From the NCBI GenBank assembly GCA_965227405.1, contig OZ245758.1:1449693-1513692 (forward strand): 64,000 nt of DNA, read 5' to 3'. Positions within the stretch are counted from its first letter, which is position 1; the number at the start of each line of letters is the position of its first letter. Shown piece after piece: positions 3,616 through 61,251 of the stretch. This stretch comes from Polyangiales bacterium. GTDB taxonomy: Bacteria; Myxococcota_A; Polyangia; Polyangiales; Houyiibacteriaceae. A program made the translations under genes and the position numbers. The notes under the pieces were generated by a model. That model saw only the letters and a program-made list of their open reading frames with translations. It was not told where the DNA came from and made no database searches.

Positions 3616-3837
3616 TGGAACCCTCCAGCGTTACTGGAAATCGTACACCATCTTGGGGATAAAAACCCGCATGTAACGCTGAGGGGGTCTGCTCGTACTG
3701 ATGATGTAGCGTGTGGTCTCCGCGTTGCTGGGGTCATCCCCGTCGATCACAACCCCGGCGGTTAATCCGAGCAGTCCCCTCCCCTCCTTTGCTCGATTCC
3801 ACCCTGGCGCGCGGCGGCCCTCGCGATAACGTCGCGG

Positions 3838-39079: not shown

Positions 39080-39107
39080 TTCTGACCCTGTCCCCAAACT
39101 GAACCCC
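39073..39107 (-). repeat. Dispersed palindromic repeat element, copy A (subfamily 1). The minus strand reads GGTTCAGTTTGGGGACAGGGTCAGAAATGAACC, with an about 35-bp conserved extension running into the Dam 5' coding region.
   Basis: Near-identical to copy E (59871-59905). Inverted relative to copy D (59777-59809). Confidence 0.7.
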
Positions 39108-39158
39108 CAAAAGAATACCCGCCGCATGGTGGTGCGGCGGGTTTCGATAGGTTCGGGT

Positions 39159-39500
39159 TTAGCTCAGTTCGACTTTGCCGTGGTCGTCGCAGTGGTCGCC
39201 GTGCGGGTGATGCAGGTGACCATCGACGATGTAGTCGACGTGATCTCCATGAGGAACCGCCTCATGACCGCATCCCGGTCCATGAACGTGATCCGCGTCA
39301 TGACCGCCACAGGTATGCGCCGGAGTGCAGTCTGCAGGGTTGTCCGCGCTCACATCAAGCGCGTGCTCTTCGACCGTTCCGTCCGCCTTCGGGTGGTGCA
39401 AATGACCGTCGTGGACAAAGTCGACGTGGTCACCGTGCTTGATCGCGGTGTGTCCACAGTCGGGTCCGTGCTTGTGGTCGTGGTCGTCATGAGTATGCAT
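39159..39500 (-). CDS. Histidine-rich putative metal-binding protein with an internal duplication (113 aa, about 30% His)
   Basis: Two copies of HGPxCGHxAxxHGDHVDxxxDGHLHHP. 11 bp downstream of the ArsR/SmtB gene. Confidence 0.65.
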   Translation of the reverse strand: MHTHDDHDHKHGPDCGHTAIKHGDHVDFVHDGHLHHPKADGTVEEHALDVSADNPADCTPAHTCGGHDADHVHGPGCGHEAVPHGDHVDYIVDGHLHHPHGDHCDDHGKVELS

Positions 39501-41017: not shown

Positions 41018-41024
41018 GGTTTCG

Positions 41025-42857: not shown

Positions 42858-42913
42858 GCACGCCTCATGTCCTTGAACCTACAGGCGAAACGCCCGGGCG
42901 CAAGGATCCTGCA

Positions 42914-45712
42914 CTAGGCGTCCGGTGCGGTAACCTTTTTGGCGGCTTTCTTCTTCGCAGCCTTCTTGGTCGTCTTCTTCGCGGCCTTCTTGGTCGTCTT
43001 CTTTTTGGCGGCCTTCTTGGTCGCCTTCTTCGCAGTCTTCTTCTTAGCTGCCTTCTTCGTCGTCTTCTTGGTCGACTTCTTCTTGGCTGCCTTCTTGGTC
43101 GACTTCTTCTTCGCCGCCTTCTTTTTCTTCTTCTTCGGGTTCGCGGCTTCTCGCTCCCGACGAAGCTGCAGCAACTCGGCCGCGCGGACGACGTCGATGG
43201 TCTTCGGATCGTCGCCTGTACGCAGCGACGCGTTGGTATCGCCATCCGTCACGTAGGGGCCCCAACGACCCTCCTTCAACACGATGGGCTTCTCGCTTAC
43301 CGGGTCGGTCCCGATCTCGCGCAGCGGCGGCTTCTCCACCTTGCCGCGTCGCTTCTTCGGTTGCGCCAAGAGTTTCAGCGCATCCTCAAGTGTGATCGTA
43401 AAGAGCTGGTCTTCGGTTTCGAGACTGCGGTTCTCTTTGTTGTGAACGATGTAGGGCCCGTAGCGTCCGTTGAACGCCATCACCGGCTCACCGTCCGCAG
43501 CGATGCCCACCTCACGCGGTAGCGAGAGCAACTTGAGCGCCTGGTCGAGCGTGAGCTCTTTCGGCTCCATGCTCTTGAGCAACGACGCTGTCTTCGGCTT
43601 CTCCTTGGCGTCCTTGCCACCCTCGCCGAGCTGTACGTACGGCCCGTAGCGACCCGCCTTGAGGAAAATCGTCAGGCCCGTGTCGGGATCGGCGCCGAGT
43701 TCACGGTCATCCGAAGGCGCGTCGAGAAGTTCGATCGCTTTCGCGAGATCCAACTCGTCCGGTGCGAGGTCGGGTGGAATCGACGCGGTCTTCTTGTCGT
43801 CGTCGACACCGGTCTGCACGTAAGGGCCGTACTGACCCATCCGAATCACAACGGCTTTGCCGTCCTCGGTTTTGCCGAGCGGAAACGTCTCGAGACGCTT
43901 CACCTCTTCGAGGTCGATCTCGTCCATCTTGGTTTTGACGCGGGTCTCCAAACCCTCGTCGCCCAAGAAGAAATCCTCGAGGTACTTGCTGCGCTTGCCC
44001 GACCCACTCGCGATCGCATCGAGGTCATCCTCCATGCGCGCGGTGAACTGGTAGTCCACCAAATCGCCGAAGTGCTCCTCGAGCAGACGCACGACCTGGA
44101 ACGCCTTGAACGAAGGAACGAGTGCACGTCCCTTCTTCCACACGTACCCACGGTCTTGAATCACGGACATGATCGACGCGTAGGTCGACGGGCGTCCGAC
44201 ACCCAACTGCTCCAGCATCTTGACCAACGACGCTTCGGTGAAACGCGCAGGTGGCTTGGTCTCGTGACCGGCCACCTCAAGGTCCGTTGCGGTGACCTTC
44301 TGGCTCTTCTTGAGCGGCGGCAGTTGCTTCTGGTTCTTGGCGAGATCCTTTTCGGGATCGTCGCTGCCTTCCACGTACGCCTTCTGGAAACCAGGGAAGG
44401 TAATGGTCTGACCACTCACACCAAAGAGCACCGACTTGCCGGCGGTGGTCTTGGCTTCAAGCGTCACGCTCAGGGTCTGTCCCTTCGCATCGGCCATCTG
44501 TGAGGCCACGGTGCGCTTCCACACCAGCTCGTAGAGCTTGGCTTCTTGCGCACCCACTTCCTTGGCCACCTGCGCAGGCATCTTGAACTCGTCGCCCGCG
44601 GGGCGAATCGCCTCATGAGCCTCTTGCGCGTTCTTGACCTTGCGCTTGTAGATGCGCGGCTCTTTCGGGACGTAGTCGTCGCCGTAGAGCTCTTTGATCT
44701 GCTTGCGCGCGGCGTCCAATGCCGTGTCCGAAAGCGTAGTGCTGTCGGTACGCATGTAGGTGATGTAACCGGTTTCGTAGAGGCGCTGCGCAACACGCAT
44801 TGTGCTGCGTGCACCCCAACCAAACTTGCGGCCTGCTTCCTGCTGAAGCGTCGAGGTCATGAACGGCGGCGCCGGTCGACGCGTCAAAGGACGCGTTTCG
44901 ACGGAAGCAACCGTAAAGCTCTTGCCCTTGAGATCGGTCGCCAATGTGTTGGCTTCCGCCTCGCTGAGGCACACGACATCTTTCTTGAGCTTGCCGTCCG
45001 CACCGAAGCTCTGACCGGTCGCGACGCGCTTGCCGTCGAACTCTTTGATCTCGGCTTCGAACTTCTCGTCCTCTTGCGTGACGAAGAGTCCGTCGAGATC
45101 CCAATACGACGCACGTACGAATGCAATGCGCTCACGCTCGCGCTCAACCACGATGCGCGTCGCAACACTCTGAACGCGACCCGCGGACTTACCGCGGCTC
45201 TTACGGCGCGACATGTCGCTCATCGCAAAGCCGTAGAGTCGGTCGAGAATGCGTCGTGCTTCTTGCGCGTCGACCAAACGCGTATCGATCTCGCGCGGAT
45301 TATCGACGGCCGCGAGAATCGCTTTCTTGGTGATCTCGTGAAACACCATGCGCTTCACGGGCACCTTGGGGTTGAGCACCTCCACGAGGTGCCACGCGAT
45401 GCTCTCCCCTTCGCGGTCCTCATCAGTCGCGAGCAGAAGTTCATCGGACTGCTTCAGAATCTTCTTCAGCTGCGCGATGTGCTTCTTGCGATCCGGGGAC
45501 ACGATGTAGAGCGGCTTGAAGTCGTCCTCCACATCGACCGCGTAGGTCTTGATGTAGGTGTTCTTGGACTTGACCTCTTTGGTGAGCTCCGAGGGCCGCG
45601 CGAGATCGCGGATATGCCCAATGGAAGACTCCACCACGAAGTCAGAACCCAAGTATTTCCCAATGGTTTTGGCCTTGGCGGGAGACTCGACGATGACGAG
45701 GGCGCGGGACAT
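42914..45712 (-). CDS. topA: DNA topoisomerase I with a Lys-rich (AAKKK/TKKAAKKK)n C-terminal tail
   Basis: Toprim N-terminus MSRALVIVESPAKAKTIGKYLG...GHIRDL. Type IA topoisomerase core. About 90-aa Lys/Ala/Thr tail. Confidence 0.95.
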   Translation of the reverse strand: MSRALVIVESPAKAKTIGKYLGSDFVVESSIGHIRDLARPSELTKEVKSKNTYIKTYAVDVEDDFKPLYIVSPDRKKHIAQLKKILKQSDELLLATDEDREGESIAWHLVEVLNPKVPVKRMVFHEITKKAILAAVDNPREIDTRLVDAQEARRILDRLYGFAMSDMSRRKSRGKSAGRVQSVATRIVVERERERIAFVRASYWDLDGLFVTQEDEKFEAEIKEFDGKRVATGQSFGADGKLKKDVVCLSEAEANTLATDLKGKSFTVASVETRPLTRRPAPPFMTSTLQQEAGRKFGWGARSTMRVAQRLYETGYITYMRTDSTTLSDTALDAARKQIKELYGDDYVPKEPRIYKRKVKNAQEAHEAIRPAGDEFKMPAQVAKEVGAQEAKLYELVWKRTVASQMADAKGQTLSVTLEAKTTAGKSVLFGVSGQTITFPGFQKAYVEGSDDPEKDLAKNQKQLPPLKKSQKVTATDLEVAGHETKPPARFTEASLVKMLEQLGVGRPSTYASIMSVIQDRGYVWKKGRALVPSFKAFQVVRLLEEHFGDLVDYQFTARMEDDLDAIASGSGKRSKYLEDFFLGDEGLETRVKTKMDEIDLEEVKRLETFPLGKTEDGKAVVIRMGQYGPYVQTGVDDDKKTASIPPDLAPDELDLAKAIELLDAPSDDRELGADPDTGLTIFLKAGRYGPYVQLGEGGKDAKEKPKTASLLKSMEPKELTLDQALKLLSLPREVGIAADGEPVMAFNGRYGPYIVHNKENRSLETEDQLFTITLEDALKLLAQPKKRRGKVEKPPLREIGTDPVSEKPIVLKEGRWGPYVTDGDTNASLRTGDDPKTIDVVRAAELLQLRREREAANPKKKKKKAAKKKSTKKAAKKKSTKKTTKKAAKKKTAKKATKKAAKKKTTKKAAKKTTKKAAKKKAAKKVTAPDA

Positions 45713-45802
45713 AAGGGATGTGCTCTAAAGCGGATGGTCGCTGGGTTGTCAAATCGGAAGCGAAGTGCTCAGTCGGCGAATCGGGTGCAACTAGCCGACT
45801 TC

Positions 45803-45840
45803 ACGACGAAACCCCGCCACGCAGCGAAGCGCGAGCGGGG
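45803..45840 (-). terminator. Hairpin (ccccgc...gcgggg) followed by UUUCGUCG on the minus strand, downstream of the Zn-ribbon gene
   Basis: Read directly. Confidence 0.4.
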
Positions 45841-45864
45841 CTCATGAGGAACCGCGAAGCGAGA

Positions 45865-46128
45865 TCAGGCTTCGCCGTAGAAGCCGGCCTCTTCCTCAGC
45901 GGCCTGCTTTGCGCGGAATTCTTCGGCGCAGGTTGGGCACGCGAGGGCTTCCTTGGCGATTTCGTATCCGGCTCCACCAGAGTCGTCCATGTGCTTTGCC
46001 TTGCGGCCTACGCGCATTTTGTGGGCCTTCGGGCGGCTCGGGTACTCGGTCGGTCGGGTCTCAGTAATGACCTTCGAGCAGCGGGTGCGCGGCGGTTGAA
46101 CGGTGTTGCAGAGCTCACAGCGGTACAT
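45865..46128 (-). CDS. Small zinc-ribbon protein (CxxC...CxxC), 87 aa
   Basis: MYRCELCNTV...ACPTCAEEF. Lies between the sulfatase gene and topA on the same strand. Confidence 0.5.
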   Translation of the reverse strand: MYRCELCNTVQPPRTRCSKVITETRPTEYPSRPKAHKMRVGRKAKHMDDSGGAGYEIAKEALACPTCAEEFRAKQAAEEEAGFYGEA

Positions 46129-46205
46129 GTCGATCTAGTTCCTAGAAAAGTGGGTCTGCCGAGATAGCGGATCCCTTTCGGGCGTGCAACTCACGCCAAA
46201 GTCGA

Positions 46206-46249
46206 GGTGTAAATTCCAGGGACAGGTTCATTAATGAACCGACCCATGG
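46206..46249 (+). repeat. Dispersed repeat element, copy B (subfamily 2): GGTGTAAATTCCAGGGACAGGTTCATTAATGAACCGACCCATGG, with a conserved extension (AACTnnCTGAAAT) shared with copy C
   Basis: Contains the perfect palindrome GGTTCATTAATGAACC. Its ATG starts track ORF 46234..46572, which is rejected as a gene because it is antisense to the sulfatase 3' end. Confidence 0.65.
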
Positions 46250-46294
46250 TCGCCAACTACCTGAAATCGCTCAGGTCGAGAAAACGAGCGACCC

Positions 46295-49200
46295 TCAGTC
46301 GCAGTACTGCGTCAGACCACGCTCGCAACACGACTCGCGACTCGCGTATCCAAGCGCGCAGTTCTTCGCAGCCTGCTCGTCGTCGATCTCGACTGTCACG
46401 CCTTCGACCGCTCCTTCACGAGCAGCCTGGCTCTGTTCGCTCAGCGTCGACTGCAGAACCTCGAGATCGGCTTCCGAAGACTCAGCAACGTTTCGCTCTT
46501 CGCCCGGATCGTAGTCCACACGATACAGCTCCACTTCCTCGAGCCCGCGCGGGTTGCGCGCGTTGGCCGTGATCAGCTTCCACTCGTCGGTGCCGCGACG
46601 CTGACGAACCGACTCGAGCACGTTGCCCTCGTGGCTCTCCTCCGCGTAGACGACGTCACTGCCCTCGAAGATGTCGCCACCCTGCATTCCATCGGGCGGC
46701 TCGAGACCGGCGAGACCCACCAAGGTCGGCATCAGGTCCACACTCTGCGTCCAGTGACCAATACGCGTTCCACCACGCGCGTTGTTCGGCAGCTTCACGA
46801 AGAGCGGAATCCGGATCTGCTCGTCGTAGAGCGTCGTGCCGTGCCAGAACCCGCCGTGCTCGCAGAACTCCTCACCGTGGTCAGACGTGATCACGATGGT
46901 CATGTCGTCGTACACACCACGACGCTTCAGGTCTTCGATGAGCGCGCCGAAGTGCTCGTCCCAGTACTCGATCTCGCCGTCGTACAACCCGCGCAGACGA
47001 TCCGCTTCCGAAGGATCCGGGCGCTGGTTGGCCGCACGTGAGTAGCCCGTTCCGTCGTAGGGATGCGGATAGTAGGGATCGTGCGGATCCATGTAGCCGA
47101 CGAAGAAGAAGAAGGGTCGGTCCGAATCCACTTCGTCAAGCCAGCGCGAAACCGTGGCGTTGACGTGCGTCGCATCTTGGTACGCCACACCGGGTGCCAC
47201 CCGTCCAAGCGCAGCGTCGATCTTCTCGCTGATTCGCTTGAACACCGACATCAACAAGAGCTTCGCAGCGGCGTCATCGGCGCCAAACACGTAGTTGGGC
47301 TCGAGGTATTCGTAGCTGTCGAAGCCCTGACCGAAGTTGTAGTAGGGCGCGACGTTGTGGTTGGTCGCGACACCACGCGTTTGCCAACCGGCGGCACGAA
47401 AGACTTCGGGCATTGTGACCAGCTCATCGGAAAGTGCCGAGCTCTTGTCCATGACGCCGTGGCTCGAAGGCATGCGGCCCGTCATGATCGAAGCGAAGCT
47501 CGGACGCGTCCAACTCGCGTTGGCAAAGGCCATGTTGAAACGAATCGCGTCTTCGGCGAACGAGTCCAAGTTGGGCGTTTCGATCGCGTCGTAGCCGTAG
47601 AGCGGAAGGTGGTCTGCACGCAGGGTGTCGACCACGATCACCAAAACGCTGTTGGCGTCGGCGGGTGCTTCGACCTCGTCGCCATTCGATAGCGCTTCAG
47701 CCGGATCGCCGTTGAAGAAGGTCGCGAGCGAAAGCACGCCGCAGAGGATTCCGACAACCACCGGAGAGCCCCACGCACGCAGCATGATCTCGCCGGGTCG
47801 ACGCGCGACGATCCAGCGCAGCCCCGCCGATACCGCGAGGTAGAGAATCCCGGCGCCCACAACACACGCGAGCAACACGCCAAGACCCATCGCGCTCTTC
47901 CAGACCAGCTCCTCATGAAACACGTCACGACGCACGCGGAAGGCGGTCAGCGCCAACCCAAAGAGCGCGATCAGAAACGCAGTCATGCGTGCATACGCAG
48001 CCGGTTCGGGCATCGCCGGTCGTTTCATCCAGCGACCCGAAAGCGCCAACACAAAGCCCATCCCTGCGCCCATGAGCGCGCAGAAGATTCCGTACACCAT
48101 CGCCCCGTAGGCGAGGACACCGGGACCGACCGTGCCGTTCCCCAAAGCAATGACCACAGCGGCTTCGCTGGTCCCAATAACTAAACCAGCGAGTGCACCG
48201 GCACCGAGGCCAATGGTCAGACCGCGAAGCGGCTTGGGCTGCTCGGCACGCTCAACCTCTTCGATGGCTTCGATGGCCCGTTGTTCGTGCTCGAGCTCGT
48301 CGACCTCGATCTCAGGCTTGTACCCGTCGCGACGCGCCAAAAAGATCAAACCGCCCACCGCAGATACAGTCATCTCACAGAGGATGAAGCCACCCGCCAT
48401 GAGCAGAATCGCCGCGGACTCTGGAAGACCGACAGCTGCAGACGAAAAGAGCGCAACCGCCGACATCTCGCGCAGACCCAGGCCGTTGATCGACGCAGGA
48501 AGAATCGTGGCGAGAATCGTGAGGTTCGCACCAAAGAAGACCACGCCGATCGGCAGGTCCAGTCCGAATGCTTGTGCGGAGCAAACGTAGATCAGGTTGT
48601 TGAACGCGTGGACACCCACGCCAAGTGCGAAGGCCTTCGCGAGGAGTTTGCCTTTGCCCTCGTAGGCGCACACCGCGTCGAGAAGCGTTTGGACGCGCGC
48701 TTGAACCTGGCGAGGCAGAAAGCGGGCGAACGTACGAAAGAGCTTCGGCTTGGCGAGCAGCAGCAGCGCCGTGCCGATGATACCGGTGAAGCAGGCGACC
48801 AGGATGTACACCGCGTTCATGCCGATGAGTTGCGCACCGAAGAGCAGTGCGCCGAAGACGACCACAACGCCCATGGCCGCTTGGCCGAGGAACGTCTCGA
48901 CACCGATCGTCGCTGTGGCGCGAGCAACCTTGCCCGTGTGCTTGGCGACGTCGTAGATGCGCCAGCCGCCAAAGCCGGTGAACCCCCCCGGAGTGAACGC
49001 GCCGAAGAAGCGCGCGATCATGATCGAGCCACCGAGAAAGCCCCAGCCTGGACGAATGCCCTGACCGCCGAGCAGCGTTTTCCAGCGAAGCGTCGCGAAC
49101 GAGATCGCGATCAACTGCATGACGATGCCAGCGCCGATCCATCCCCAGGAGATGTCGCTCAGCCGTGCCCACAGATCTTCGCTTCCGTCTCGCCCGAGGA

Positions 49201-49354
49201 CCTTGCGGAAGATCAGCCAATAGGCGCCGACCGCGAAGGCGACCTTCAACGCAAGCAGAAGGATGCGCTTCGGAGTCCATCGACCCTTCGGCTGGGTTTG
49301 TTCACGCTGCGCGTGATCGCTCGTAGTGTCCTCGCCCGGACGCTCGTCGCTCAT
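46295..49354 (-). CDS. Membrane protein fusion: N-terminal lysyl-phosphatidylglycerol-synthase-like TM (flippase-like) region, additional TM helices, and a C-terminal sulfatase / alkaline-phosphatase-superfamily domain (LtaS/MdoB-like)
   Basis: Start chosen at MSDERPGED (RBS AAGGAAAGGG). VLVIVVDTLRADHL and VITSDHGEEF sulfatase motifs. Confidence 0.75.
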   Translation of the reverse strand: MSDERPGEDTTSDHAQREQTQPKGRWTPKRILLLALKVAFAVGAYWLIFRKVLGRDGSEDLWARLSDISWGWIGAGIVMQLIAISFATLRWKTLLGGQGIRPGWGFLGGSIMIARFFGAFTPGGFTGFGGWRIYDVAKHTGKVARATATIGVETFLGQAAMGVVVVFGALLFGAQLIGMNAVYILVACFTGIIGTALLLLAKPKLFRTFARFLPRQVQARVQTLLDAVCAYEGKGKLLAKAFALGVGVHAFNNLIYVCSAQAFGLDLPIGVVFFGANLTILATILPASINGLGLREMSAVALFSSAAVGLPESAAILLMAGGFILCEMTVSAVGGLIFLARRDGYKPEIEVDELEHEQRAIEAIEEVERAEQPKPLRGLTIGLGAGALAGLVIGTSEAAVVIALGNGTVGPGVLAYGAMVYGIFCALMGAGMGFVLALSGRWMKRPAMPEPAAYARMTAFLIALFGLALTAFRVRRDVFHEELVWKSAMGLGVLLACVVGAGILYLAVSAGLRWIVARRPGEIMLRAWGSPVVVGILCGVLSLATFFNGDPAEALSNGDEVEAPADANSVLVIVVDTLRADHLPLYGYDAIETPNLDSFAEDAIRFNMAFANASWTRPSFASIMTGRMPSSHGVMDKSSALSDELVTMPEVFRAAGWQTRGVATNHNVAPYYNFGQGFDSYEYLEPNYVFGADDAAAKLLLMSVFKRISEKIDAALGRVAPGVAYQDATHVNATVSRWLDEVDSDRPFFFFVGYMDPHDPYYPHPYDGTGYSRAANQRPDPSEADRLRGLYDGEIEYWDEHFGALIEDLKRRGVYDDMTIVITSDHGEEFCEHGGFWHGTTLYDEQIRIPLFVKLPNNARGGTRIGHWTQSVDLMPTLVGLAGLEPPDGMQGGDIFEGSDVVYAEESHEGNVLESVRQRRGTDEWKLITANARNPRGLEEVELYRVDYDPGEERNVAESSEADLEVLQSTLSEQSQAAREGAVEGVTVEIDDEQAAKNCALGYASRESCCERGLTQYCD

Positions 49355-49545
49355 GAATCCCTTTCCTTGTGTCGTCGTTCGCCCCGACGACTCCTTGCGG
49401 TAGCTGGCGCTGACGAATCGGTCAAAAATTCGCAGCTCAGGAGGGAAATCCACGCGAAATCCCCCACATTCCGCCGTCAGGGATTCCCTCCCTCAAAAGC
49501 AGCGCAATGTTGCGCGCGATCTCGGGTGTTGGTAGCAGCGTGGAC

Positions 49546-50910
49546 ATGCGACTTCGGCTCGGATTGGCGTTCGGACTCTTCGTGATCGTGATGTACGTGG
49601 CGTGCGGCGGTGAGAACCGCGAAACGCCCAACAACGAGACTCCAGACAACACCACGATGGAAACGTCGATGAGTTCGATGGGCACCTCGATGGCACCCCG
49701 CGAGACCAACGACGAACCCCGTGGGGACGAGATCCCCGACAACCTCACCCGCGGTCTGCTGATCACCTACTCGCCCTTCGACCAAAACGAGCAAGGCAAC
49801 TGGGTCGTTCCACAGCCAGCACGCTTGGAGATGCTGACGCGTCGCAACGGCGAATGGAGCGCCCAGGTGATCACCGATGAAGACAGCAACGTCTTCCACA
49901 AAGCGATGGTCTACGACCCGCCTGGTGATGCAGCCCCCGGCGTTCTCACCATCGGTGGCATGGAGGCGTACGTGAAGCTTTGGCGCCGCGTCGACGGTGA
50001 CTGGCAGGCCGAGACGCTGTGGCACGAGAACTTCGGCGGTGAACGCAACCGCATGCGCGACGTTGAGATTGCCCACCTCTACCCTGGTGGTCAGGCGGCA
50101 CTTGCCATCGCCACGCACGACCAGGGCATCTTCGCGACCATCCGGCCCGACGGTGAGAACTGGAACGTCACGCAAAGCGCACGACACCCGAACACGTTCG
50201 TGCACGAAGTTGAGATCGGAAACCTCAACGGCGACGGCAACCTCGAGGTCTACACCACGCCGAGCGAGCCCAACACGATGCAGGGCGGCACCCAGTCGGG
50301 GCAGGTTCTTCGTTACATTCCCGCAGAAAACATGGAGGGAACGGTCGTTGCCGATCTCGGAAACCGCCACGCCAAAGAGATCTGGGTCGGCGATGCAGAC
50401 GGCGATGGAACCGACGAACTCTACGTTTCGGTCGAGGGTCTGACGCGCCGCGAAGGTGGCACCCTCGAGGTGATCGAACCGGTCGAAATTCGTCGCTACG
50501 ACGCAGATACTCCGCCCGATCAGGGTGTCGTGATTGCCCGCATTGAAGGCGACCACCTGATGCGTTTCTTGACCGTCGGCGACATCGACGGAGACGGAGA
50601 CAAAGAGATGGTCGCAGCATCGTTTAGCCGCGGCTTGTGGCTACTGCGTCCGGGATCGAACCCACGCTCGGAGTGGAGCAAGGAAAGCATCGACCGCGAG
50701 TCGGGTGGATTCGAACACGCGTCGATCCTCGCCGACCTGGATGGCGACGGAACCGACGAGCTCTACGTGTCTTCGGACAACCACGGCGAGCTTCGCCGCT
50801 ACGTGTGGATCAACGGGTCACCGCGACGAAGCGTGATTCATCGTCGCGCCGAACCGCGTTCGATGATCACCTGGAACCTGATGCCTGCGCCAGCGGAACT
50901 GATTCGCTGA
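49546..50910 (+). CDS. Lipoprotein with FG-GAP / integrin-alpha-type Ca-binding repeats (beta-propeller-like)
   Basis: MRLRLGLAFGLFVIVMYVACGG lipobox. Repeats GDADGDGTDELYVS, GDIDGDGDKEMV, ADLDGDGTDELYVS. Confidence 0.7.
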   Translation: MRLRLGLAFGLFVIVMYVACGGENRETPNNETPDNTTMETSMSSMGTSMAPRETNDEPRGDEIPDNLTRGLLITYSPFDQNEQGNWVVPQPARLEMLTRRNGEWSAQVITDEDSNVFHKAMVYDPPGDAAPGVLTIGGMEAYVKLWRRVDGDWQAETLWHENFGGERNRMRDVEIAHLYPGGQAALAIATHDQGIFATIRPDGENWNVTQSARHPNTFVHEVEIGNLNGDGNLEVYTTPSEPNTMQGGTQSGQVLRYIPAENMEGTVVADLGNRHAKEIWVGDADGDGTDELYVSVEGLTRREGGTLEVIEPVEIRRYDADTPPDQGVVIARIEGDHLMRFLTVGDIDGDGDKEMVAASFSRGLWLLRPGSNPRSEWSKESIDRESGGFEHASILADLDGDGTDELYVSSDNHGELRRYVWINGSPRRSVIHRRAEPRSMITWNLMPAPAELIR

Positions 50911-51289
50911 CCGGTTCCTTGGCCAACTTGAGTTGCGTCGTCGCTTTCTCTTTCTTGCGACGCGGCTTGCGCGGCTTCTTCGTCGGCTGAAGCACGATCG
51001 ATTCGAGCTGCTCACTCAGCTCCGTATCGTCCGACGCGTATACGCGTGCGTACTGCTGAGCGCGCAACGCGGTCTTGAGCAACTCCGCGCGTTGGGTGTC
51101 GAGCGCGCTACGGGCTTGCTCAAGTTCGGCTTGGCGTTGGGTGACGAGCGCGAACGCGTCTTCAACACCGCGGACTTGTTCTGCAAGCACGTCGCGATCG
51201 ACGTCGGGAAAACGAACCTCCGAGAGGGAGTCTTCGAAAAGCGCGAGAAGGTCGTGGATAGCGGAGGAAATCGGAGCTTGACTGTTCAT
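50867..51289 (-). CDS. Hypothetical protein with a basic C-terminal tail
   Basis: Start at MNSQAPISSAIHDLL. No domain recognised. Confidence 0.4.
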   Translation of the reverse strand: MNSQAPISSAIHDLLALFEDSLSEVRFPDVDRDVLAEQVRGVEDAFALVTQRQAELEQARSALDTQRAELLKTALRAQQYARVYASDDTELSEQLESIVLQPTKKPRKPRRKKEKATTQLKLAKEPVSESVPLAQASGSR

Positions 51290-51315
51290 TCGTTCAGTAT
51301 ACTCAAATCCGCTCT

Positions 51316-52017
51316 CTAGACCAGTTCGGGAGCAAACACCTCCACGTCCACGCCGGGCGAGTAGTGGATCAACTCCGGTCCTTCGCTCGGTGCAGGCAGG
51401 GCCGCCGCTGCGATCAACGACTCCTCGCAACGCGTCACCTGTGCGTCGAAGGCGGGGTATGGAACGTGATGCACCTGGCCACGAACAAGCCGACCGCGCT
51501 TGATCGCGAACAGATAGTAGCGCTCCAAGAAGAAGTGCTCATGTGAACCCAAGGGTGATGCGCCGAGCTCGTTCCCGATCGTGTAGTCGACCCGAAGGTG
51601 CGCTCCATCGGCGTGACGAACGGTCTCGAACGTTCCCGCCGACGCCGACATCGTCGCGTGGTGATAGGGCAAGCCCCAACCGGTACGCGCGGCTTGAACC
51701 GCAAGCCATGAGCTTGCTTCAAGCGAGAAGAAGTACACGCCCGGCTGATCGTTGTAGTGCACGTACGTGCGTAGGTTGCATTCGAGAAAGTTGAACGCGA
51801 GTGCGCTGGGCCACCACGAAGGCGCGATGTCACGCATCAGGAAGGGAACGACACCCACCCACGCACGCCCGTCGTAGAGATCGAGTTCGAGCTCGTCAGG
51901 AACGACGGCGCGCATCGCGTCAACAGGAACCGACCAGTGAAGGAAGAGCAACTCGCGCCAACGCTGAGTACCCGCGTTGGATCCAGGCGGTCGAATCGAA
52001 GGAGCGTGCCGATCCAC
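51316..52017 (-). CDS. DUF2071 (YqjF-like) family protein
   Basis: N-terminal WRELLFLHW and the overall pattern are typical of the DUF2071 family. Confidence 0.6.
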   Translation of the reverse strand: MDRHAPSIRPPGSNAGTQRWRELLFLHWSVPVDAMRAVVPDELELDLYDGRAWVGVVPFLMRDIAPSWWPSALAFNFLECNLRTYVHYNDQPGVYFFSLEASSWLAVQAARTGWGLPYHHATMSASAGTFETVRHADGAHLRVDYTIGNELGASPLGSHEHFFLERYYLFAIKRGRLVRGQVHHVPYPAFDAQVTRCEESLIAAAALPAPSEGPELIHYSPGVDVEVFAPELV

Positions 52018-52021
52018 AAGT

Positions 52022-52733
52022 CATGGTTACGGTACTGCTCTTGAACGTTCGAATCCATCTCGACCACCCGCTTTCGCTCGCGCAGATCCGCGGGTTGCGA
52101 AGGCTTGTGCCGTATCTCCGCACGCGTCGTGCTGTCGATATTCGGGAGATTCTCGCGCGACAGCGTTGGTGGATTGCAACTGGGGTCAACGACATCCGGA
52201 AAGCCCTGCGTGAGTTGGGATTCCGGTTCGAGACGTTCGAACACGGTGAGTACGGTGCGACGTTTCTCCGCTCTGTACTCACGTCCGACCTCGAAGCCGA
52301 AGACGCGGGGTTTGACGTTGTCTTTGAGCCCTCGTTCACTCCACAAAGCATCGTTTGGGCCAGTGCTGAACGCATCGAGCTCGTGGCGTCACCTGTCGGT
52401 CTTCACACGCAGTTCTTCACCGACTCGCAACACGCGTCGCACCAAGAGTTCCAGGTCCTTCGAGAAACCATCACGTATCGCGAGCCAGCGCTTCAACTGC
52501 TCGCGCACGCGACTCCCGATCGTGGAAGAGATTTTGGTCTTGATGGAACCACCGTGACGCTTCGATCACGCCGGACGAGCGAAGTGCGCACCACGGAGAT
52601 GTGGTGTCCGTCACGTGCGAGCCACACTGAGGCGTACTCGGTGATCGCACGCGTACTGACGCTGCTGGAAGACGAGCTACGCGACGAACGCCTGCGACGT
52701 TGTGTGCAACGTTTGCGCTCAACGCTGGGCTAG
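52022..52733 (+). CDS. Hypothetical protein. Coding status is uncertain.
   Basis: Open frame with protein-like composition, but GC3 is clearly lower than in neighbouring genes, and its start lies 5 bp from the divergent DUF2071 start. Confidence 0.3.
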
Positions 52734-52770
52734 TACCGTTTCAACGCCAAAGTGATCTTAGCACCCACGT

Positions 52771-53694
52771 TCACCACTCCACCCAACAACGCGCGCACAG
52801 CACGAGTGCTTCTTCGATCACCCGCACCTCGCCTTCGACACCGCACTGCGGGCACTCGCCAGTCGTCCACTCCGCCGGCTTGGGATCGTCCATGGTGCCG
52901 AGAAGCGCTTTCGAGGCAGCCGCGAGCTTAACGCGCATGTCCGCTCGAAGATCCTCGCGTTCCTGCTTGCGCCACCGACGTTCAGCCTCTTCTGCTTCAC
53001 GTTGCTCGCGCGCCTCAATGTTCTGCCGAAGCGCAATCATTGGGTCCGTGGGTCGATATGGAATGTCGTAGTCGGGCCCTTTCGCTTCGCCGGCTTCTGC
53101 ACGATCAAGCCAGTGTTCGTACCAGTCCAGGAAACTGGGCCCGGCGGGAGTGAAGCCTGCTGGTAGTTCGCCGGGCACCTTCGTGAAAGGTCCAAATGCA
53201 CCGGCGTTTGGTTCGTGCGTCCACACTTCGTCGGCGTGTGGTCCGTTCAGCACGAGCATGCCCGACGTTCCAGAGTCGTAGCTCACAATTGTCAGCGTCC
53301 CGTCGCCAAGCTCGTCTCCGCGTTCCCAGTCGTCGTCGGACCGCACTTCGATCCCGGGAAACGCGCGAGTCTCGCCGTCAAACTCACACGCCGCTGCCAC
53401 CACCGCCTGCCCATAGTATGCGTAGTCCAACGGGTCGCCGTCGGTCCTCGCGTCTGGAACCACGCGGTCTAGAGTCACGAGTGCGAAGCGTTCCAAGCTA
53501 AACGCCGGACCAGCACCGCCGTTTCCAACCGTCTGGATGAACGCTCGATACTGCGGAGGCAGCCGGATCCCACGCGCCTCTTCGATCTCAACGACCTGTT
53601 CTTCGCTCAGCACGTTGCCGATTTCGAAGCCGAACTCACGTTCCAACGCTTCAAGCCGCTCAATGATCTTCGTCAGGCGCCCGGCGACATCCAC
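52771..53694 (-). CDS. SMI1/KNR4 (SUKH-1 superfamily) immunity-like protein with a C-terminal CxxC...CxxC zinc ribbon
   Basis: RLPPQYRAFIQTVGNGGAGPAFSL matches the SUKH signature (LPxxYxxFL...NGG). C-terminal CPQCGVEGEVRVIEEALVLCARC. Confidence 0.7.
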   Translation of the reverse strand: MDVAGRLTKIIERLEALEREFGFEIGNVLSEEQVVEIEEARGIRLPPQYRAFIQTVGNGGAGPAFSLERFALVTLDRVVPDARTDGDPLDYAYYGQAVVAAACEFDGETRAFPGIEVRSDDDWERGDELGDGTLTIVSYDSGTSGMLVLNGPHADEVWTHEPNAGAFGPFTKVPGELPAGFTPAGPSFLDWYEHWLDRAEAGEAKGPDYDIPYRPTDPMIALRQNIEAREQREAEEAERRWRKQEREDLRADMRVKLAAASKALLGTMDDPKPAEWTTGECPQCGVEGEVRVIEEALVLCARCWVEW

Positions 53695-53711
53695 GTCGCC
53701 ACTCTACGCAT

Positions 53712-54416
53712 TCAAGCGGCCAACGCTAGAGACAGCGCTAGGTTTCGTGTCCTTGTCACCAACTCTTCCGACACTCGCGGTTCCAGGTAGTTCGCGGCGT
53801 AGTGCATCAGCTGCGCATCCACTTGCGACGGACGACCTCGCGCGTCGAGCAAGCTCGACAGGTACTCACTCGGATCGAAGTCCGCGAAGATCACGGGCGC
53901 ACCGCGGTTCTCTGCCAGCCACACCACCAAGTTCTTCACGGCAAGCGTGGCCACGCGGTGATCCGACTCGTCAACATCTTTGAGGAACAACTCGATCGTG
54001 CGGTTCTCCCGCAAGATGCTCAACGCGGCAGCGACTTCTTTGCCGGTGATCTGTTTGCCGTCAGGCAGCTTCATGTACCGCGCCTTCATCCCAACGTGTT
54101 GGCGACGCGCGCGTTCCAACTCGAACAACCACAGAGCCACGTCCTCGTTTCCGAAGTGACCTTTGCGGCCCATCCAACGAAACCAACGTTCCAGTAGTTT
54201 GAACGTGTGGCCCGTCCCCGAACCGGCTGCGTACACATTCACGTAGACTTCGCAGCTGGCTTCGGTGAAGAACGACCAGTACTCGATGCCTTGGCGAGGG
54301 TCGGTCGGGAAGCGACGTGCCAGCGCAACCTGCAAGACCTCGCGGCACATGTCGGGATTGGCGGGGCGAACGTCGGCGAGAAAGGGCTCGATCAAGTCGA
54401 GCGGTCGAATCGTCAT
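53712..54416 (-). CDS. Hypothetical protein (234 aa)
   Basis: Open frame, no motif recognised. Immediately upstream of the SUKH gene on the same strand. Confidence 0.45.
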   Translation of the reverse strand: MTIRPLDLIEPFLADVRPANPDMCREVLQVALARRFPTDPRQGIEYWSFFTEASCEVYVNVYAAGSGTGHTFKLLERWFRWMGRKGHFGNEDVALWLFELERARRQHVGMKARYMKLPDGKQITGKEVAAALSILRENRTIELFLKDVDESDHRVATLAVKNLVVWLAENRGAPVIFADFDPSEYLSSLLDARGRPSQVDAQLMHYAANYLEPRVSEELVTRTRNLALSLALAA

Positions 54417-54458
54417 GCCGGTGTATCGGCCTACGCCACGATGAGTTGCTTCGAAGGC

Positions 54459-55193
54459 TCAGTTCGAACCGCAACTGATCAATGCGGTGCCGCCAGGTGT
54501 CTGAACTTCACGCGCACAGGTCACCTCGCAGCGATCCGGGCCGTGGTACTCGAACAGCACGCGGTAGCTGGCGTTGGGCTCGATGTGAATGGGGAAGCTG
54601 CGATTGCATCCGCGTTCAGCGTAGCGACGGACGCTCGTCGAGTGATGGTATCGCGTGACAGTGTACGATCGTCCGTTGCGATACTCCGTGCCCAAACTCG
54701 TCCAGTTGTGATGTCGGATTTGCTGAATCACCGGCGCACTGCCAACGCTGAGGTACTGAGTGCCTGCCTCGACCGGAAACGCGAACGCACCCGGATCACG
54801 ACGACGAACGATCTCACCATGACCCTGAACGCGATATGTCTCGCGTTGCGCGATCCCTTCGGTTGAGTGGTAGTGCGCCTCGATTTTCACAATGCCTTGT
54901 GCAGCGTTTTCGGGGGGGGCTTCGTAGGACCGATCATCACGACAACTACCGTTTCGACTGCCGAAGGGATCGCACTCCAAGCGCGCCACACGACCGCAAC
55001 CCCAAGCAACCCAACGCTGTGCTCGTCCCGGCAGCGGGTCCCGACGGTACGGATTGTCGGGCGCTCGCGCGATCTCGACATCGTCACAATCGAGTTGCTG
55101 CTCGATCATATCGCGTGCGTGGTGACGCGGTCGAAAGGGCTCCCGGACAGCACAGGCCTGGACAAGCAAGGCGAGAATCAACAGCTGTTTCAT
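54459..55193 (-). CDS. Hypothetical secreted Cys-containing protein
   Basis: Signal MKQLLILALLVQACA. Confidence 0.45.
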   Translation of the reverse strand: MKQLLILALLVQACAVREPFRPRHHARDMIEQQLDCDDVEIARAPDNPYRRDPLPGRAQRWVAWGCGRVARLECDPFGSRNGSCRDDRSYEAPPENAAQGIVKIEAHYHSTEGIAQRETYRVQGHGEIVRRRDPGAFAFPVEAGTQYLSVGSAPVIQQIRHHNWTSLGTEYRNGRSYTVTRYHHSTSVRRYAERGCNRSFPIHIEPNASYRVLFEYHGPDRCEVTCAREVQTPGGTALISCGSN

Positions 55194-55801
55194 CGGACGC
55201 TCCGGAGGGCAATGGTCATGGCGACAGTGCCGTACGCGTCGAGCCAGGACTCGCCGCCGATCTCACGAAGGTTGATTCCTGCTTCGACCTCGGTGGCGAC
55301 GATTTTGCCGATGTGAAAACCGACGTGCGGGCCTATGTGCCAACCTTCATCACGTGCATCGTTCTCGAACGACCAGTCGTAGCTGATGCCACCGTGACCA
55401 CCGAGGAACACCGACACGATCCCAGCACTCGCGCGGACGCGAAGCTTCGTTCCGACATCCAGCAATGCGTGGTCGCGTGGGTCATCAAGAATGTCATCGG
55501 TACCTTCGCGCCACCAACCAGCGCGAGCGTACAGACCAATGCTAAACGCGACGCCCAGTGCAACGTCCACACCCATGCTGCCCACGACGCCAGCCGAGAT
55601 GGCGTCGTCGCCATGGTCGCGAAGGGGAATGAGCATTTGTGCGCCGATGACCAATCGTGGAACGCGAAGGTAACCGCGCTCGTTCGACAGCGGGTCGAGC
55701 TCAGACGTGTTGACCCGATGCCGGGTTAGAGGGACGTCCCACTGCGCTTGGGCAACACTGGTTGTCGCAGCAGCGAGAAGAATGAGGATGACGCGAGGCA
55801 T
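55190..55801 (-). CDS. Hypothetical secreted protein (possible small outer-membrane beta-barrel)
   Basis: Signal MPRVILILLAAATTSVAQAQ. Alternating hydrophobic pattern and Gly-rich strands. C-terminal aromatic-like end. Confidence 0.45.
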   Translation of the reverse strand: MPRVILILLAAATTSVAQAQWDVPLTRHRVNTSELDPLSNERGYLRVPRLVIGAQMLIPLRDHGDDAISAGVVGSMGVDVALGVAFSIGLYARAGWWREGTDDILDDPRDHALLDVGTKLRVRASAGIVSVFLGGHGGISYDWSFENDARDEGWHIGPHVGFHIGKIVATEVEAGINLREIGGESWLDAYGTVAMTIALRSVR

Positions 55802-55871
55802 GCCGGCTTATCGGCGCGGCTAAGCACCAGTTGCTTGTTCCGTCAGATTCAATAATTTCAGCCAGTTACAG

Positions 55872-55916
55872 CTCATGGGTCGGTTCATTTCTGAACCTGT
55901 CCCTCAAATTTACACC
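55872..55916 (-). repeat. Dispersed repeat element, copy C (subfamily 2). The minus strand reads GGTGTAAATTTGAGGGACAGGTTCAGAAATGAACCGACCCATGAG, 60-110 bp upstream of the minus-strand gene starting at 55801.
   Basis: About 85% identical to copy B over 45 bp, plus a shared downstream extension. Confidence 0.65.
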
Positions 55917-55992
55917 TGGGCTTTGACGGGGCGGTGTTGGTGGGCCATACATCCGGCCCCGCTGCGTATGACCCGCAGGGGCGAGATTTTCC

Positions 55993-56238
55993 ATGAAGCC
56001 CGATATCCATCCCGACTATCACCCCGTTGTCTTCGTGGACGACGAGCACGAGATCATCACGCGCTCGACCATGAAGTCCGGCGAAACCCGCAGCATCAAC
56101 GGCGTTGACCACTTCGTGGTTCGCGTTGACATCAGCTCCTTCTCGCATCCGTTTTACACGGGTCGCCAGAAGGTCGTCGACCGAGAAGGTCGCGTGGAGC
56201 GCTTCAAGAAGCGCTACGCGAAAAAGAAGAAGAGCTGA
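55993..56238 (+). CDS. rpmE2: Ribosomal protein L31 type B (Cys-less, zinc-independent paralog)
   Basis: [14 protein letters not shown]...[25 protein letters not shown]. No CxxC zinc ribbon. Confidence 0.85.
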
Positions 56239-58076: not shown

Positions 58077-58387
58077 GCCCCTGTTGGATCCAGGTCCGTG
58101 TGGGGACGTAGTCCGTACGGACCTGAACCTCGAAAACCGCCCGTTTCCTTCGCAGAATCGAACGCGACCCTGCTGCAACGGTTCTCTGCACGCGTGAAAC
58201 AGCGAGAACCGTTCGGTCTGCACGAGCGATTGGCGCATCGGTCCACAACAAGCCAAGCGCAGCACTTCCCTCTGAACGCACTCACACCAGACTTCGATCA
58301 CAGCCCCATCCCGGGAGCTGGTCGCGGGCCCTCCACATCTCCCCTCGGAATCGGCATCCCAAAAAGCCGATCGTGCCCGCGACCGAA

Positions 58388-58422
58388 CGCCTGACTGTTC
58401 GCAGTCGGGCGTTCTTCTTTTT
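58388..58422 (+). terminator. Intrinsic terminator (cgcctgactg-ttcg-cagtcgggcg plus TTCTTCTTTTT) about 310 bp downstream of the SDR gene. It delimits a possible small non-coding transcript.
   Basis: Read directly. The overlapping track ORF 58098..58394 is P/S-rich and not protein-like. Confidence 0.5.
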
Positions 58423-58441: not shown

Positions 58442-59743
58442 ATGGCGTTTCGGGACGACCGCGAGGCTCTGCGAGCCAAAAGCGATGCGCTCGAAGCGGA
58501 TCTCGCCGAGGCTCAAGAGCGACTGCTCGAACTCGAGAGTCGTGGGGACGCGGACCAGCGGGAACTGCGACGTCTTCGTCGACAACTAGCGCGTGCAGTA
58601 CCGAGCCGTCGTGTTCCGGTTCTGTCCATCTTGGTGACACTCTTGTTCTTGTTGGGAGTGATCGGGGGAATGCTGGCGTTCAGCCAAGACGACGAAGCGC
58701 CCTCCGACACCGTCGACGAGCCTGAACAGGCTCCGCTTGCTCGAATCGAAACACCACCGCGTGTCGCATTTGGTGCACAGGTGATTCGCTCAACAGGAGC
58801 CACCATCGATTCGGGTTGCGTGTTCGTCGCAAATCTTGAGCGTGGACCTACGGTCAGTCGCTTGGTTGCGCGATGCGACGACCAGGTGCTCTTTGACTCC
58901 AACGTCGAGCAGCCGGGTGTTCGTATCCGGGACCATCAGGTGCACGAAATCGAACAGCACGAGTTGCTGCAGTACCGGTTGCGGTATCGGGACACGGGAA
59001 GTGCGGGCACACAAATCGTGGTCGATTCGCAGCATCGCCGTGCGCGGATTTGGAACGACGCGGTCGACCTTCGCTTTGCGCTGGACGATCGAAGTGGAGC
59101 GCGTGCGGGAGCACGGTTCGGACAGCCATTGTCGCAGCCGATTGCGGACTCGCTGCATGTTCGAGCGGTTCCGATGTCGAGCCGAGGCAACGCGCCAGAG
59201 TTGAGCGAGATGTGCGAGCTTCGCGTGCATCCCGCAGTGGGCCGCGAATCGCAGAACTGCCGAATCGTCGTGGATTGCGGGACGATTCTCTACGGTGCGA
59301 ACAACGGTGGGTACAACGAGTGCACCTTCGATGAGGGCCGACCCGATACCGCACGAGATTCACGCGGAGCCGACTTTGACGGGGACCCAAAGCTGACGCT
59401 GAACTTTCAGGAACGAACGCTCGTGGTCGAAGACGCGTGGCGCCACGAGTTCACCTTGGAAGAAGACGAACGTTGCCAGATCGCCGGAGCGTGGGACGGA
59501 GATTTCCGAAGCATGGGGCTGTACGTGTTCACGCAGAACGGCAGAACGCTCGCGACGACCGACCTCGCCGATTCGATGGTGTGGGATGCGCGGGTGGATT
59601 TGGACTGCAAGAGCGGACAGGGAACGATCGAGATCGACGACCACGGGTTGTTCGAAGGTCGATTTGGACCTGGCTTCCAAACCTTCGTGGGTCACGTGCG
59701 CAGCCTGGACGCGACGACCTTCTACCTAATGCGAACCGAGTAA
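58442..59743 (+). CDS. Hypothetical bitopic membrane protein (N-terminal coiled coil, one TM helix, about 340-aa extracytoplasmic domain)
   Basis: RVPVLSILVTLLFLLGVIGGMLAF TM segment. Confidence 0.55.
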   Translation: MAFRDDREALRAKSDALEADLAEAQERLLELESRGDADQRELRRLRRQLARAVPSRRVPVLSILVTLLFLLGVIGGMLAFSQDDEAPSDTVDEPEQAPLARIETPPRVAFGAQVIRSTGATIDSGCVFVANLERGPTVSRLVARCDDQVLFDSNVEQPGVRIRDHQVHEIEQHELLQYRLRYRDTGSAGTQIVVDSQHRRARIWNDAVDLRFALDDRSGARAGARFGQPLSQPIADSLHVRAVPMSSRGNAPELSEMCELRVHPAVGRESQNCRIVVDCGTILYGANNGGYNECTFDEGRPDTARDSRGADFDGDPKLTLNFQERTLVVEDAWRHEFTLEEDERCQIAGAWDGDFRSMGLYVFTQNGRTLATTDLADSMVWDARVDLDCKSGQGTIEIDDHGLFEGRFGPGFQTFVGHVRSLDATTFYLMRTE

Positions 59744-59776
59744 CCTTCGTCCCGCAATCGGGTAGATTGAGCAAAA

Positions 59777-59905
59777 GGTTCAGATTGGGGACAGGGTCAG
59801 ATCTGAACCGGACTCCTCCGAAAACGACCCACTTTCCTCGTGATCGCGAATTGTATGGTCACATAGTTCAGTTCAGTTCTGACCGTGTCCCCAAACTGAA
59901 CCCCC
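59777..59905. repeat. Inverted pair of subfamily-1 repeat elements: D at 59777-59809 (+) reads GGTTCAGATTGGGGACAGGGTCAGATCTGAACC, and E at 59871-59905 (-). They are separated by about 61 bp between convergent genes. MITE-like or bidirectional-terminator-like.
   Basis: D equals the reverse complement of A with 3 mismatches. E matches A with 33/36 identities. Confidence 0.7.
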
Positions 59906-59923
59906 ATCTGGGATTGAGGACGC

Positions 59924-61153: not shown

Positions 61154-61251
61154 CGGCCTATCCCCCATGAACACACCGATCCTAAACGACTCGGCCTTCG
61201 ATCGCGGTCACTTTTTGCGCAACTCACACCCTCAAAGTCCGATGAGCTTGC

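Follow-up and report, generated by a model that had tools for sequence, protein, structure and literature searches.

Repetitive extragenic palindromic (REP) elements are recognized by their short length (about 20–60 nt), an imperfect palindromic core, a location outside genes and hairpin-forming inverted doublets (PMC3116915). REPs and their doublets (REPINs) are mobilized by REP-associated tyrosine transposases (RAYTs), for example in the groups GI–GIII of Pseudomonas fluorescens SBW25 (Bertels & Rainey, 2011; PMC3116915). A repeat family resembling these systems was analysed in a 64,000-nucleotide stretch (referred to throughout as the window) of contig OZ245758.1 from a Polyangiales bacterium (assembly GCA_965227405.1, forward-strand positions 1,449,693 to 1,513,692); all coordinates are window positions unless a strain is named. 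An original prediction, made from the letters alone, had described two copies of a repeat element, B and C, and had proposed either a family related to REPs and miniature inverted-repeat transposable elements (MITEs) or a conserved promoter–leader cassette. The first proposal was supported: the copies form hairpins outside genes and lie in both orientations, two of them make up an inverted doublet, orthologous sites in relatives lack them or hold something different, and assemblies break at them. They constitute a real, non-chance, non-coding repeat family, and B and C are, on balance, probably singlets in a clade-specific family of short, interspersed, palindromic and non-coding REP/REPIN-like repeats. 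The best reading, by analogy, is that the elements work as REPs and REPINs do; they are not filed here as a proven member of that class.

The core GGGACAGGKTCAN4TGAACC was matched five times in the window at two or fewer mismatches, against 0.08 matches expected, and none of 100 shuffles reached five, in keeping with the earlier argument that five copies spoke against chance. The matches lie at 39073–39094 (−, copy A), 46219–46240 (+, copy B), 55882–55903 (−, copy C), 59788–59809 (+, copy D) and 59870–59891 (−, copy E). A profile hidden Markov model (HMM) built from the five copies returned exactly A–E and no sixth copy from the window, as did a covariance model run with filters off (38–44 bits; next best 13.9 bits). 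The gapless alignment of B and C covers 74 nt at 81% identity (46194–46267 and 55855–55928), somewhat shorter than the ~90 bp that had been claimed. The core identity had been given as ~85%; in the 44-nt core (46206–46249 and 55872–55916) five positions are mismatched (~89% identity by count). Also confirmed were the presence of ATGAACCGACCCATG in both copies (B, 46234–48, +; C, 55888–74, −) and of the common downstream block AACTnnCTGAAAT. Copies A and D have 53 nt in common at 89% identity.

Units from the window, strain contigs, a sister lineage and two other loci were anchored on GGGACA, which gave a gapless alignment of 30 columns and 11 units. An invariant GGGACA is followed in this alignment by (G/A)G, 6-nt arms with a 4-nt loop and then ACC-G-N-AC, and GGGACA(G/A)G stands 5′ of the hairpin in all 11 units. 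The core of each unit consists of the box, directly followed by a 16-nt hairpin (6-bp arms, 4-nt loop) and (C)G-N-AC. Two types of head occur upstream of the core, GGTTCAG(T/A)TT in A, D and E and CAAAGYCSAGGTGTAAATT in B and C (with GGTGTAAATT as the common B/C head), and two types of tail occur downstream; both heads and tails are optional. Copy E joins a subfamily-1 head to a B/C-like tail (...CTATGTGACCATAC), and the modules therefore look exchangeable. Judged from such arrangements, heads, hairpins and tails appear to have been shuffled between copies, and B and C look chimeric.

Copy B, a subfamily-2 singlet delimited by alignment, HMM and covariance model, extends over 46194–46271 (+). 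It is made up of the head CAAAGTCGAGGTGTAAATT, the box AGGGACAGG, a perfect hairpin GGTTCA-TTAA-TGAACC and a tail with AACTACCTGAAAT; its stem is lengthened by GGG/CCC to give a 34-nt imperfect palindrome (core 46218–46247). Copy C, a singlet of the same subfamily delimited in the same way, extends over 55850–55928 (−) and has the head, box and tail of B with the hairpin GGTTCA-GAAA-TGAACC (core 55875–55904). The subfamily-1 singlet A (39043–39113, −; nhmmer 6.6e-17, covariance model 40 bits) consists of the head GGTTCAG, the box GGGGACAGG, an imperfect hairpin GGGTCA-GAAA-TGAACC (core 39066–39095) and the tail CGCACTCCCCCGAAAAGGACC. Copy D (subfamily 1; 59771–59839, +; core 59787–59816) has the loop GATC, and hence no ATG, and forms the left half of an inverted doublet, the right half of which is E, the most degenerate copy (59840–59906, −; core 59863–59892). 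The REPIN-like doublet D/E measures 130 bp (59777–59906), with imperfect arms of ~35 bp and a spacer of ~60 nt, and a 7-nt direct repeat, GATTGAG, lies outside it at 59765–71 and 59912–18. Separately from these copies, the spacer between the short-chain dehydrogenase/reductase (SDR) gene and the gene for a 433-aa protein contains GGGGACGTAGTCCGTACGGACCTGAACC (58102–58131, +), in which a GGGGAC box is accompanied by a 5-bp hairpin and a CTGAACC arm motif. This sequence, also kept in strain L078, gives a very weak covariance-model match (8.7 bits, E 8.5) and could be a sixth copy in decay.

Pairing in the 6-bp helix was evaluated over the 11 sequences. Standard pairs make up 90.9% of the cells, and two helix pairs have changed on both sides (four cells; UA→AU/GC and CG→AU). 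Neither the observed pairing nor the covariation score was matched in any of 500 column shuffles, and pairing fell to 14–44% when the 3′ arm was slid by 1–3 columns. In the relatives, box and geometry are unchanged and the arms change with compensation (TTCA/TGAA, AAAC/GTTT, GCAC/GTGC). The direction of this pattern is clear and points to a hairpin that is maintained, together with its distance to the box, while the sequence of the arms varies freely. As single-stranded DNA (ssDNA), B folds at −7.9 kcal/mol (z −3.9) and C at −7.8 kcal/mol (z −4.8). D and E, which stand tail to tail, fold into one hairpin of ~35 bp at −68 kcal/mol, compared with −40.8 ± 4.2 for shuffles (z −6.5 on each strand). 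No inverted partner was found within 300 nt of A, B or C.

Syntenic contigs were retrieved by way of the sulfatase and the 433-aa protein. They comprise the same species (L071, 99.3% identical; L078/79/86/87, 96–98%), sister lineages at ~82% nucleotide identity (L072/73 and L080–85) and more distant relatives (L076, L077 and L074/75). The element was not found in L072–L077 by either the HMM or the covariance model. B is absent from the orthologous spacer in L076 and L077. In L077 only a few bases separate the sulfatase stop from the block GGGGCGCAAGTTGCGCC...ATCCGCTATCTC (conserved GGCGYRAGTTGC...ATCCGCTATCTC), which in the window starts exactly at the outer edge of the B head; the window thus has ~98 extra bases, consisting of a terminator-like hairpin and B. 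The same locus in L076 holds a different insert of ~300 nt with its own simple repeats. At the C locus, L072 has in common with the window the rpmE leader with its apparent promoter (TTGAC-N17-CATACA) and the GCCGATAAGCCGG(G)CATG motif at the start of a 202-aa gene; between that promoter and the gene, C is replaced by different, lineage-specific repeats. L080 has a head identical to that of C (CAAAGCCCAGGTGTAAATTcttGGGACAGG) followed by a different hairpin, GGTTAATTAATTTACC, and C is kept in strain L078. At the D locus the window reads a 38-nt head and then GGGGACAGG-GTCAGATCTGAAC-CGGACTCC. The same-species strains L078 and L079 (97% identical) read GAGTAA-ACCTT-GGGGACAGG-TAAAC-TG-GTTTA-CCGGACCT, with GGGGACAGGTAAACTGGTTTACCGGACCT in place of D, and L080–85 carry a reversed unit, GGGGACAAGTGCACCAGTGCACCGAGCC. 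Read from these orthologous loci, the comparison shows that lineages, and even strains, differ by gain, loss or replacement of copies. As a separate observation, L072 has small repeats of its own (its positions 2194–2224, 2742–2772, 5538–5599 and 13177–13225): GGGGACGCGTA..CCCCACACCTCG occurs twice, on both sides of rpmE, and CGTCCCCCAGTAGCTC occurs in ~4 tandem copies and again, incomplete and inverted, behind the sulfatase gene. They may be related, at some divergence, to the GGGGAC-box family.

Logan contigs (k = 31) terminate inside the elements in at least seven samples. The L071 contig spans exactly from the A core to the B core; the contigs of L078 and L079 terminate 34 nt past the stop of the 433-aa gene, inside the D-locus unit; and the six L080–85 contigs shown all terminate at one base in their own D-locus unit (...CACTTGTCCCC), that of L080 also beginning inside its C-locus unit. 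The L071 break at A falls where A and E diverge after a common 30-mer, and a single-base difference between A and E lies there in the window strain. The break at B is unexplained by any copy in the window, which implies another copy elsewhere or a population variant. Taken together, the breaks show the elements acting as repeats in de Bruijn assemblies and are indirect evidence of multiple copies.

The likeness to REPs and REPINs comprises units of ~30–75 nt with an imperfect palindromic core, strictly extragenic and in either orientation; singlets accompanied by an inverted doublet (~60-nt spacer, one long hairpin) at one of four loci; a conserved motif directly 5′ of the hairpin; several coexisting variants; and turnover between related genomes. 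REP/REPIN systems are also marked by tens to hundreds of copies per genome and by a single-copy RAYT gene (Y1 HUH) flanked by repeats. The window elements are unlike them in their modular-looking heads and tails and their myxobacterial host, and the copy number of the variant may be low.

Several results weigh against the REP/REPIN reading. Nunvar and co-workers are said to have described in 2010 a conserved 5′ GTAG tetranucleotide next to the REP palindrome; the motif at this position in the window units is GGGACA(G/A)G, not GTAG. No RAYT/IS200-type or other transposase, integrase or recombinase was found among the window open reading frames (ORFs) scanned against Pfam, nor did a clean empty site with a duplicated target turn up. 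The single subfamily-1 units are poor palindromes (A, D and E; ssDNA z values of −1.3, +0.15 and −1.5 among them); their stems carry a G·A mismatch and, alone, fold no better than shuffles. The covariation is drawn from a small sample of just three variant hairpins. Scans with an exact pattern gave 34 loci in 185,579 species genomes and 36 loci in JGI metagenomes. Both numbers are about those expected by chance (estimated for the genome scan at ~35, from 2.9e-11 per position × 2 strands × 596 Gb), and, as a serious caveat, no genome among the 185,579 has many exact copies of this hairpin variant. The copy number of the variant may be low, or the source genome may lie outside the species collection; if the source genome is in the collection with nothing but the window masked, the variant is limited to a 21-kb stretch.

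If the REP/REPIN reading is correct, the units would spread or be homogenized as DNA. The most likely route would be an ssDNA hairpin and its adjacent box recognized by a trans-acting enzyme encoded elsewhere in the genome, analogous to the recognition of a REP and its 5′ GTAG by a RAYT/IS200-type HUH transposase. Copies would then exchange modules by gene conversion, and effects on neighbouring genes (as a terminator, an mRNA-end hairpin or a promoter-adjacent spacer) would be secondary.

All five copies lie between genes, these being Pfam-supported or long ORFs, in the layout <-A B-> <-C D-> <-E; A reaches only into a possible N-terminal extension of a methyltransferase ORF. Two of the five, A and C, face the start of a gene. 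Copy A comes directly after the terminator hairpin of a gene at 39159–39500 and is located upstream of, or overlaps, the 5′ end of the D12 DNA methyltransferase ORF, the Pfam domain of which begins at residue 26. The sole in-frame ATG upstream of this domain is inside A (MNRTPPK...; window 39079 versus 39010), and an in-frame GTG just before the domain (VIKYLGSK...) is an alternative start; D encodes a matching LNRTPPK peptide through repeat homology. The 375-aa version of the methyltransferase has no record in the gene collection. Copy B is flanked on one side by the sulfatase gene's terminator and on the other by the conserved promoter-like region of an operon of an 87-aa gene and topA, and D and E are located between the convergent genes 58442–59743 (+) and 59924–61174 (−). 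Copy C had been described as oriented like a 5′ leader of the gene at 55801. It is on the minus strand, 84 nt upstream of the ATG; rpmE (55993–56238, +) had been overlooked, and C is actually in a divergent intergenic region, a spacer of 191 nt between rpmE and the 203-aa gene (55801, −). The rpmE start is visible as ten protein letters at its N-terminus, and the C head adjoins the rpmE −35 box (TTGACG). The leader of rpmE, which encodes ribosomal protein L31, is itself of note: it spans ~55 nt (55939–55992) and contains a GC-rich hairpin, GCCCCGCTGCGTATGACCCGCAGGGGC. The leader and the promoter-like pair TTGACG-N17-CATACA are kept in L072, L078 and L080, in which the flanking spacer varies.

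The Pfam annotation of the window is that of an ordinary chromosome, and the names attached to the closest sulfatase homologues put the organism in Myxococcota, Polyangiales-like. The genes include those for homogentisate dioxygenase, the D12 DNA methyltransferase, an ArsP permease, topA, an LPG-synthase/sulfatase fusion and an FG-GAP protein; further genes are DUF2071, a SUKH/SMI1 protein, hemB, SDR, a metallophosphatase, a lipid-synthesis cluster and DUF1552/DUF1592 pairs. No tRNA or tmRNA was found in the window, and an origin of the elements from such a gene was dropped.

Other mobile or recombining elements were weighed against the REP/REPIN reading. MITEs (Correia/NEMIS, Nezha and the Tn3-derived TIMEs) resemble D/E in being ~130 bp long, non-coding and intergenic with long terminal inverted repeats. 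D/E could be such an element, a 130-bp non-autonomous transposon with ~35-bp terminal inverted repeats served by a DDE transposase encoded elsewhere, with A, B and C as solo ends or decayed copies. The long imperfect inverted repeats that fold as one hairpin, the GATTGAG repeat on both sides and the polymorphism of the locus between strains are consistent with this. We nevertheless regard it as improbable, since the GATTGAG repeats are not flush with the ends of the inverted repeat (they stand 5 nt from the left and 5–6 nt from the right end), at three of the four loci the unit is a single arm that lacks a partner within 300 nt, the part conserved across variants is the internal box with its compensating hairpin rather than the termini, and no insertion sequence with matching ends was found in the window and no match in plasmid records or viral contigs. 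Tn3-type ends begin with GGGG; such ends were dropped as a candidate, the inverted repeat continuing outward past the GGGG run. Integron attC sites are similar in that structure is kept more than sequence and in lying between genes in a strain-variable region, and dissimilar in that the orientation here is not uniform and the window has no integrase; attC was rejected, as reading of the copies, with no pattern search run, gave no RYYYAAC/GTTRRRY core sites at the unit ends. The nested inverted pairs A/D and B/C might alternatively be sites of a site-specific recombinase, flanking invertible segments of 20.7 and 9.7 kb. The layout <-A B-> <-C D-> does make each subfamily an inverted pair, and in another strain contigs end at A, B and D. 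Such inversion is very improbable given that no recombinase gene was found in the window, that the L071 and L078 contigs are colinear with it with no inverted junction seen, that the paired copies are only 81–89% identical and that the enclosed segments carry housekeeping genes (topA, hemB and rpmE); dif/Xer sites were likewise dropped, there being no recombinase in the window. A last DNA-level possibility, which we consider a slight one, is an undescribed mobile or recombinogenic 'boxed hairpin' of Myxococcota, defined by an invariant GGGACAGG box set at constant distance from a 6/4/6 hairpin that covaries freely, with a dedicated enzyme that is not a GTAG-type RAYT and with exchange of modules. 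Were it true, the box-plus-hairpin contigs of Burkholderiales and Xanthomonadales described below would point to one widespread, unrecognized element–enzyme system.

Readings in which the elements act through transcription or translation were also weighed. A structured RNA (a terminator-like 3′ hairpin, an mRNA stabilizer or a small RNA) selected for its RNA function and not for mobility would suit the position of A, D and E directly after co-oriented genes, the preservation of the hairpin through compensatory changes and the setting of D/E between convergent genes, where it could stop read-through both ways. The original prediction had suggested Rfam as a check, and this gave no match at the gathering score over the whole window or at E ≤ 5 at the elements (38900–60100). 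A short T-run is present only on the minus-strand side of D/E and in none of the other copies, B is antisense to the gene that it follows, the RNA folds of single units are weak (z +0.4 to −2.1) and the turnover in presence and absence speaks against a locus-specific function; an RNA function is accordingly unlikely. More doubtful still is the promoter–leader cassette of the original prediction, in which the head would supply TGTAAAT as an extended −10 and the box and hairpin would form the 5′ untranslated region of a regulon. A, C and the copy in L034 are upstream of co-oriented genes, two of which encode secreted proteins, and a lineage with ~82% overall identity has the C head unchanged. 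That conservation may instead reflect the position of the head just upstream of the rpmE −35 box, and the search for σ70-type hexamers at a spacing of 16–18 nt gave no promoter-like site in 55700–56100 or 45700–46400, in and around C and B; TGTAAAT as an extended −10 was not supported. Apart from the two of five copies that face a gene, B faces a gene 3′ end, D and E stand between convergent genes and the L052 copy stands between convergent ORFs. The missing B of L076 and L077, the replacement of C in L072 and the sharing of only the C head by L080 argue in the same direction, and the 203-aa gene has, near its start, a conserved GCCGATAAGCCGGCATG motif outside the element that is also present in L072, which lacks C. 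Small protein genes or leader peptides starting at ATGAACCGACCCATG are hardly credible. Both B and C have, as described, an ATG in this motif that reads MNRPM..., with N-(Y/W)-L-K a few codons on in both. The ATG had already been taken for a pseudo-start, with good reason: it is formed by the loop A and the arm TGAACC, CTG stands in its place in D, E and L034, and the other hairpin variants lack it. The 22-codon ORF of C is refuted by a TGG→TAG change at codon 9 in the 97%-identical strain L078, and the ORF of B (46234–46572, +) runs, as noted originally, antisense through the Pfam-supported LPG-synthase/sulfatase gene (46295–49453). A chimeric query of all stop-free frames of the five copies matched no protein at E ≤ 10 among 5.8 billion sequences.

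Most of the loci from the pattern scans are unrelated; apart from L034, L052 and perhaps L056 and L061, none looks like a relative. L034, from a Polyangia metagenome-assembled genome (MAG), and L052 match far beyond the search pattern and score 41–42 bits with the covariance model. An exact-pattern scan of the IMG/VR viral contigs gave no matches, and neither B nor D/E had a BLAST match in the PLSDB plasmids. A near-perfect 30-nt palindrome, GGGGACAGGTTCAAAAATGAACCTGACCCC, was found in MAG contigs of Burkholderiales, Usitatibacter and Lysobacter and in soil metagenome contigs (L004, L008, L020, L021, L023, L026, L053, L054, L057, L060, L067 and L069). These palindromes are like B and C in their GGGGACAGGTTCA-N4-TGAACC core, an identity that exists by construction because they were retrieved with the pattern, and in their GGGG/CCCC closure and A·A mismatch; they often form inverted doublets 43–65 nt apart and near contig ends. 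They differ from the window copies in being full 13-bp palindromes without head or tail and in belonging to unrelated phyla; the likeness may reflect either a common type of enzyme or convergence. Literature searches for the palindrome or core strings found no publication on them, only unrelated eukaryotic primer matches, and a search for REPs described in myxobacteria found nothing relevant.

The novelty of the family is modest, namely a variant of a known element type in a little-studied clade, and no new regulatory or coding system is revealed. If the REP/REPIN reading is true, 'resident' repeats of this kind are extended to uncultivated marine myxobacteria of the Polyangiales type, GGGACARG with the 6/4/6 hairpin becomes a signature for finding the partner enzyme and the fragmentation of short-read assemblies at these spacers is accounted for. 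On the same condition, annotators would be warned that ATG ORFs at these elements, possibly including the long N-terminus of the methyltransferase, are artefacts.

Several further features were recorded in the window and its relatives. A 17-nt motif, GCCGATANNCCGGCATG, occurs at 54414–54430 (−) and 55799–55815 (−), in each case ending at the start codon of a gene; the two genes (234 and 203 aa) are unrelated (BLASTP E = 21). GCAACT lies ~14 nt upstream of the motif, which also precedes the L072 orthologue and looks like a −10 box placed for leaderless mRNA. Relative to 54433–55848, the same-species strain L078 (7375–7403; also L087) is without the 244-aa and 203-aa genes (1.4 kb); the junction is inside the common leader motif, which suggests that the two leader copies recombined to give the deletion, and C is then located upstream of the 234-aa gene. 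Copy C was rejected as the cause of this deletion, which is explained by recombination between the two leader-motif copies, themselves unrelated to it. The segment 52018–53712 (L078 2595–6653) is also strain-variable: it includes the SUKH/SMI1-KNR4 (immunity-protein-like) gene, the SMI1 gene being only 84% identical, and L078 has extra genes there for proteins of 296 aa, 273 aa (Exo_endo_phos), 162 aa and 87 aa. In L072, but not in the window, a HipA/HTH toxin–antitoxin pair stands between the DUF2071 and FG-GAP genes. Just upstream of the 433-aa gene, a strong hairpin with a T-run (58375–58418, +; CGAACGCCTGACTGTTCGCAGTCGGGCGTTCTTCTTTTT) gave sub-threshold Rfam matches to sar and ctRNA (30.9 bits versus a gathering score of 43), which probably reflect only its terminator-like shape. 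Two overlapping inverted repeats lie at 5441–5610, within a gap of ~1.7 kb in which the ORF screen picked up no gene: GCGTTGTTCGACCAAAATGACTAG / CTAGTCATTTTGCTCGAACAACGC (24 nt, 96%, 38 nt apart) and a 36-nt pair at 5483–5518 / 5575–5610. Coding tandem repeats were located at 41020–41135, 42908–43161, 17255–17476 and 1–3630; the ArsP permease has a (GHGHG)n tail and topA one that is rich in K/A, a repeat with a period of 6 nt lies at 17.3 kb, and the first ORF has Cys/Asp repeats of the MopE type.

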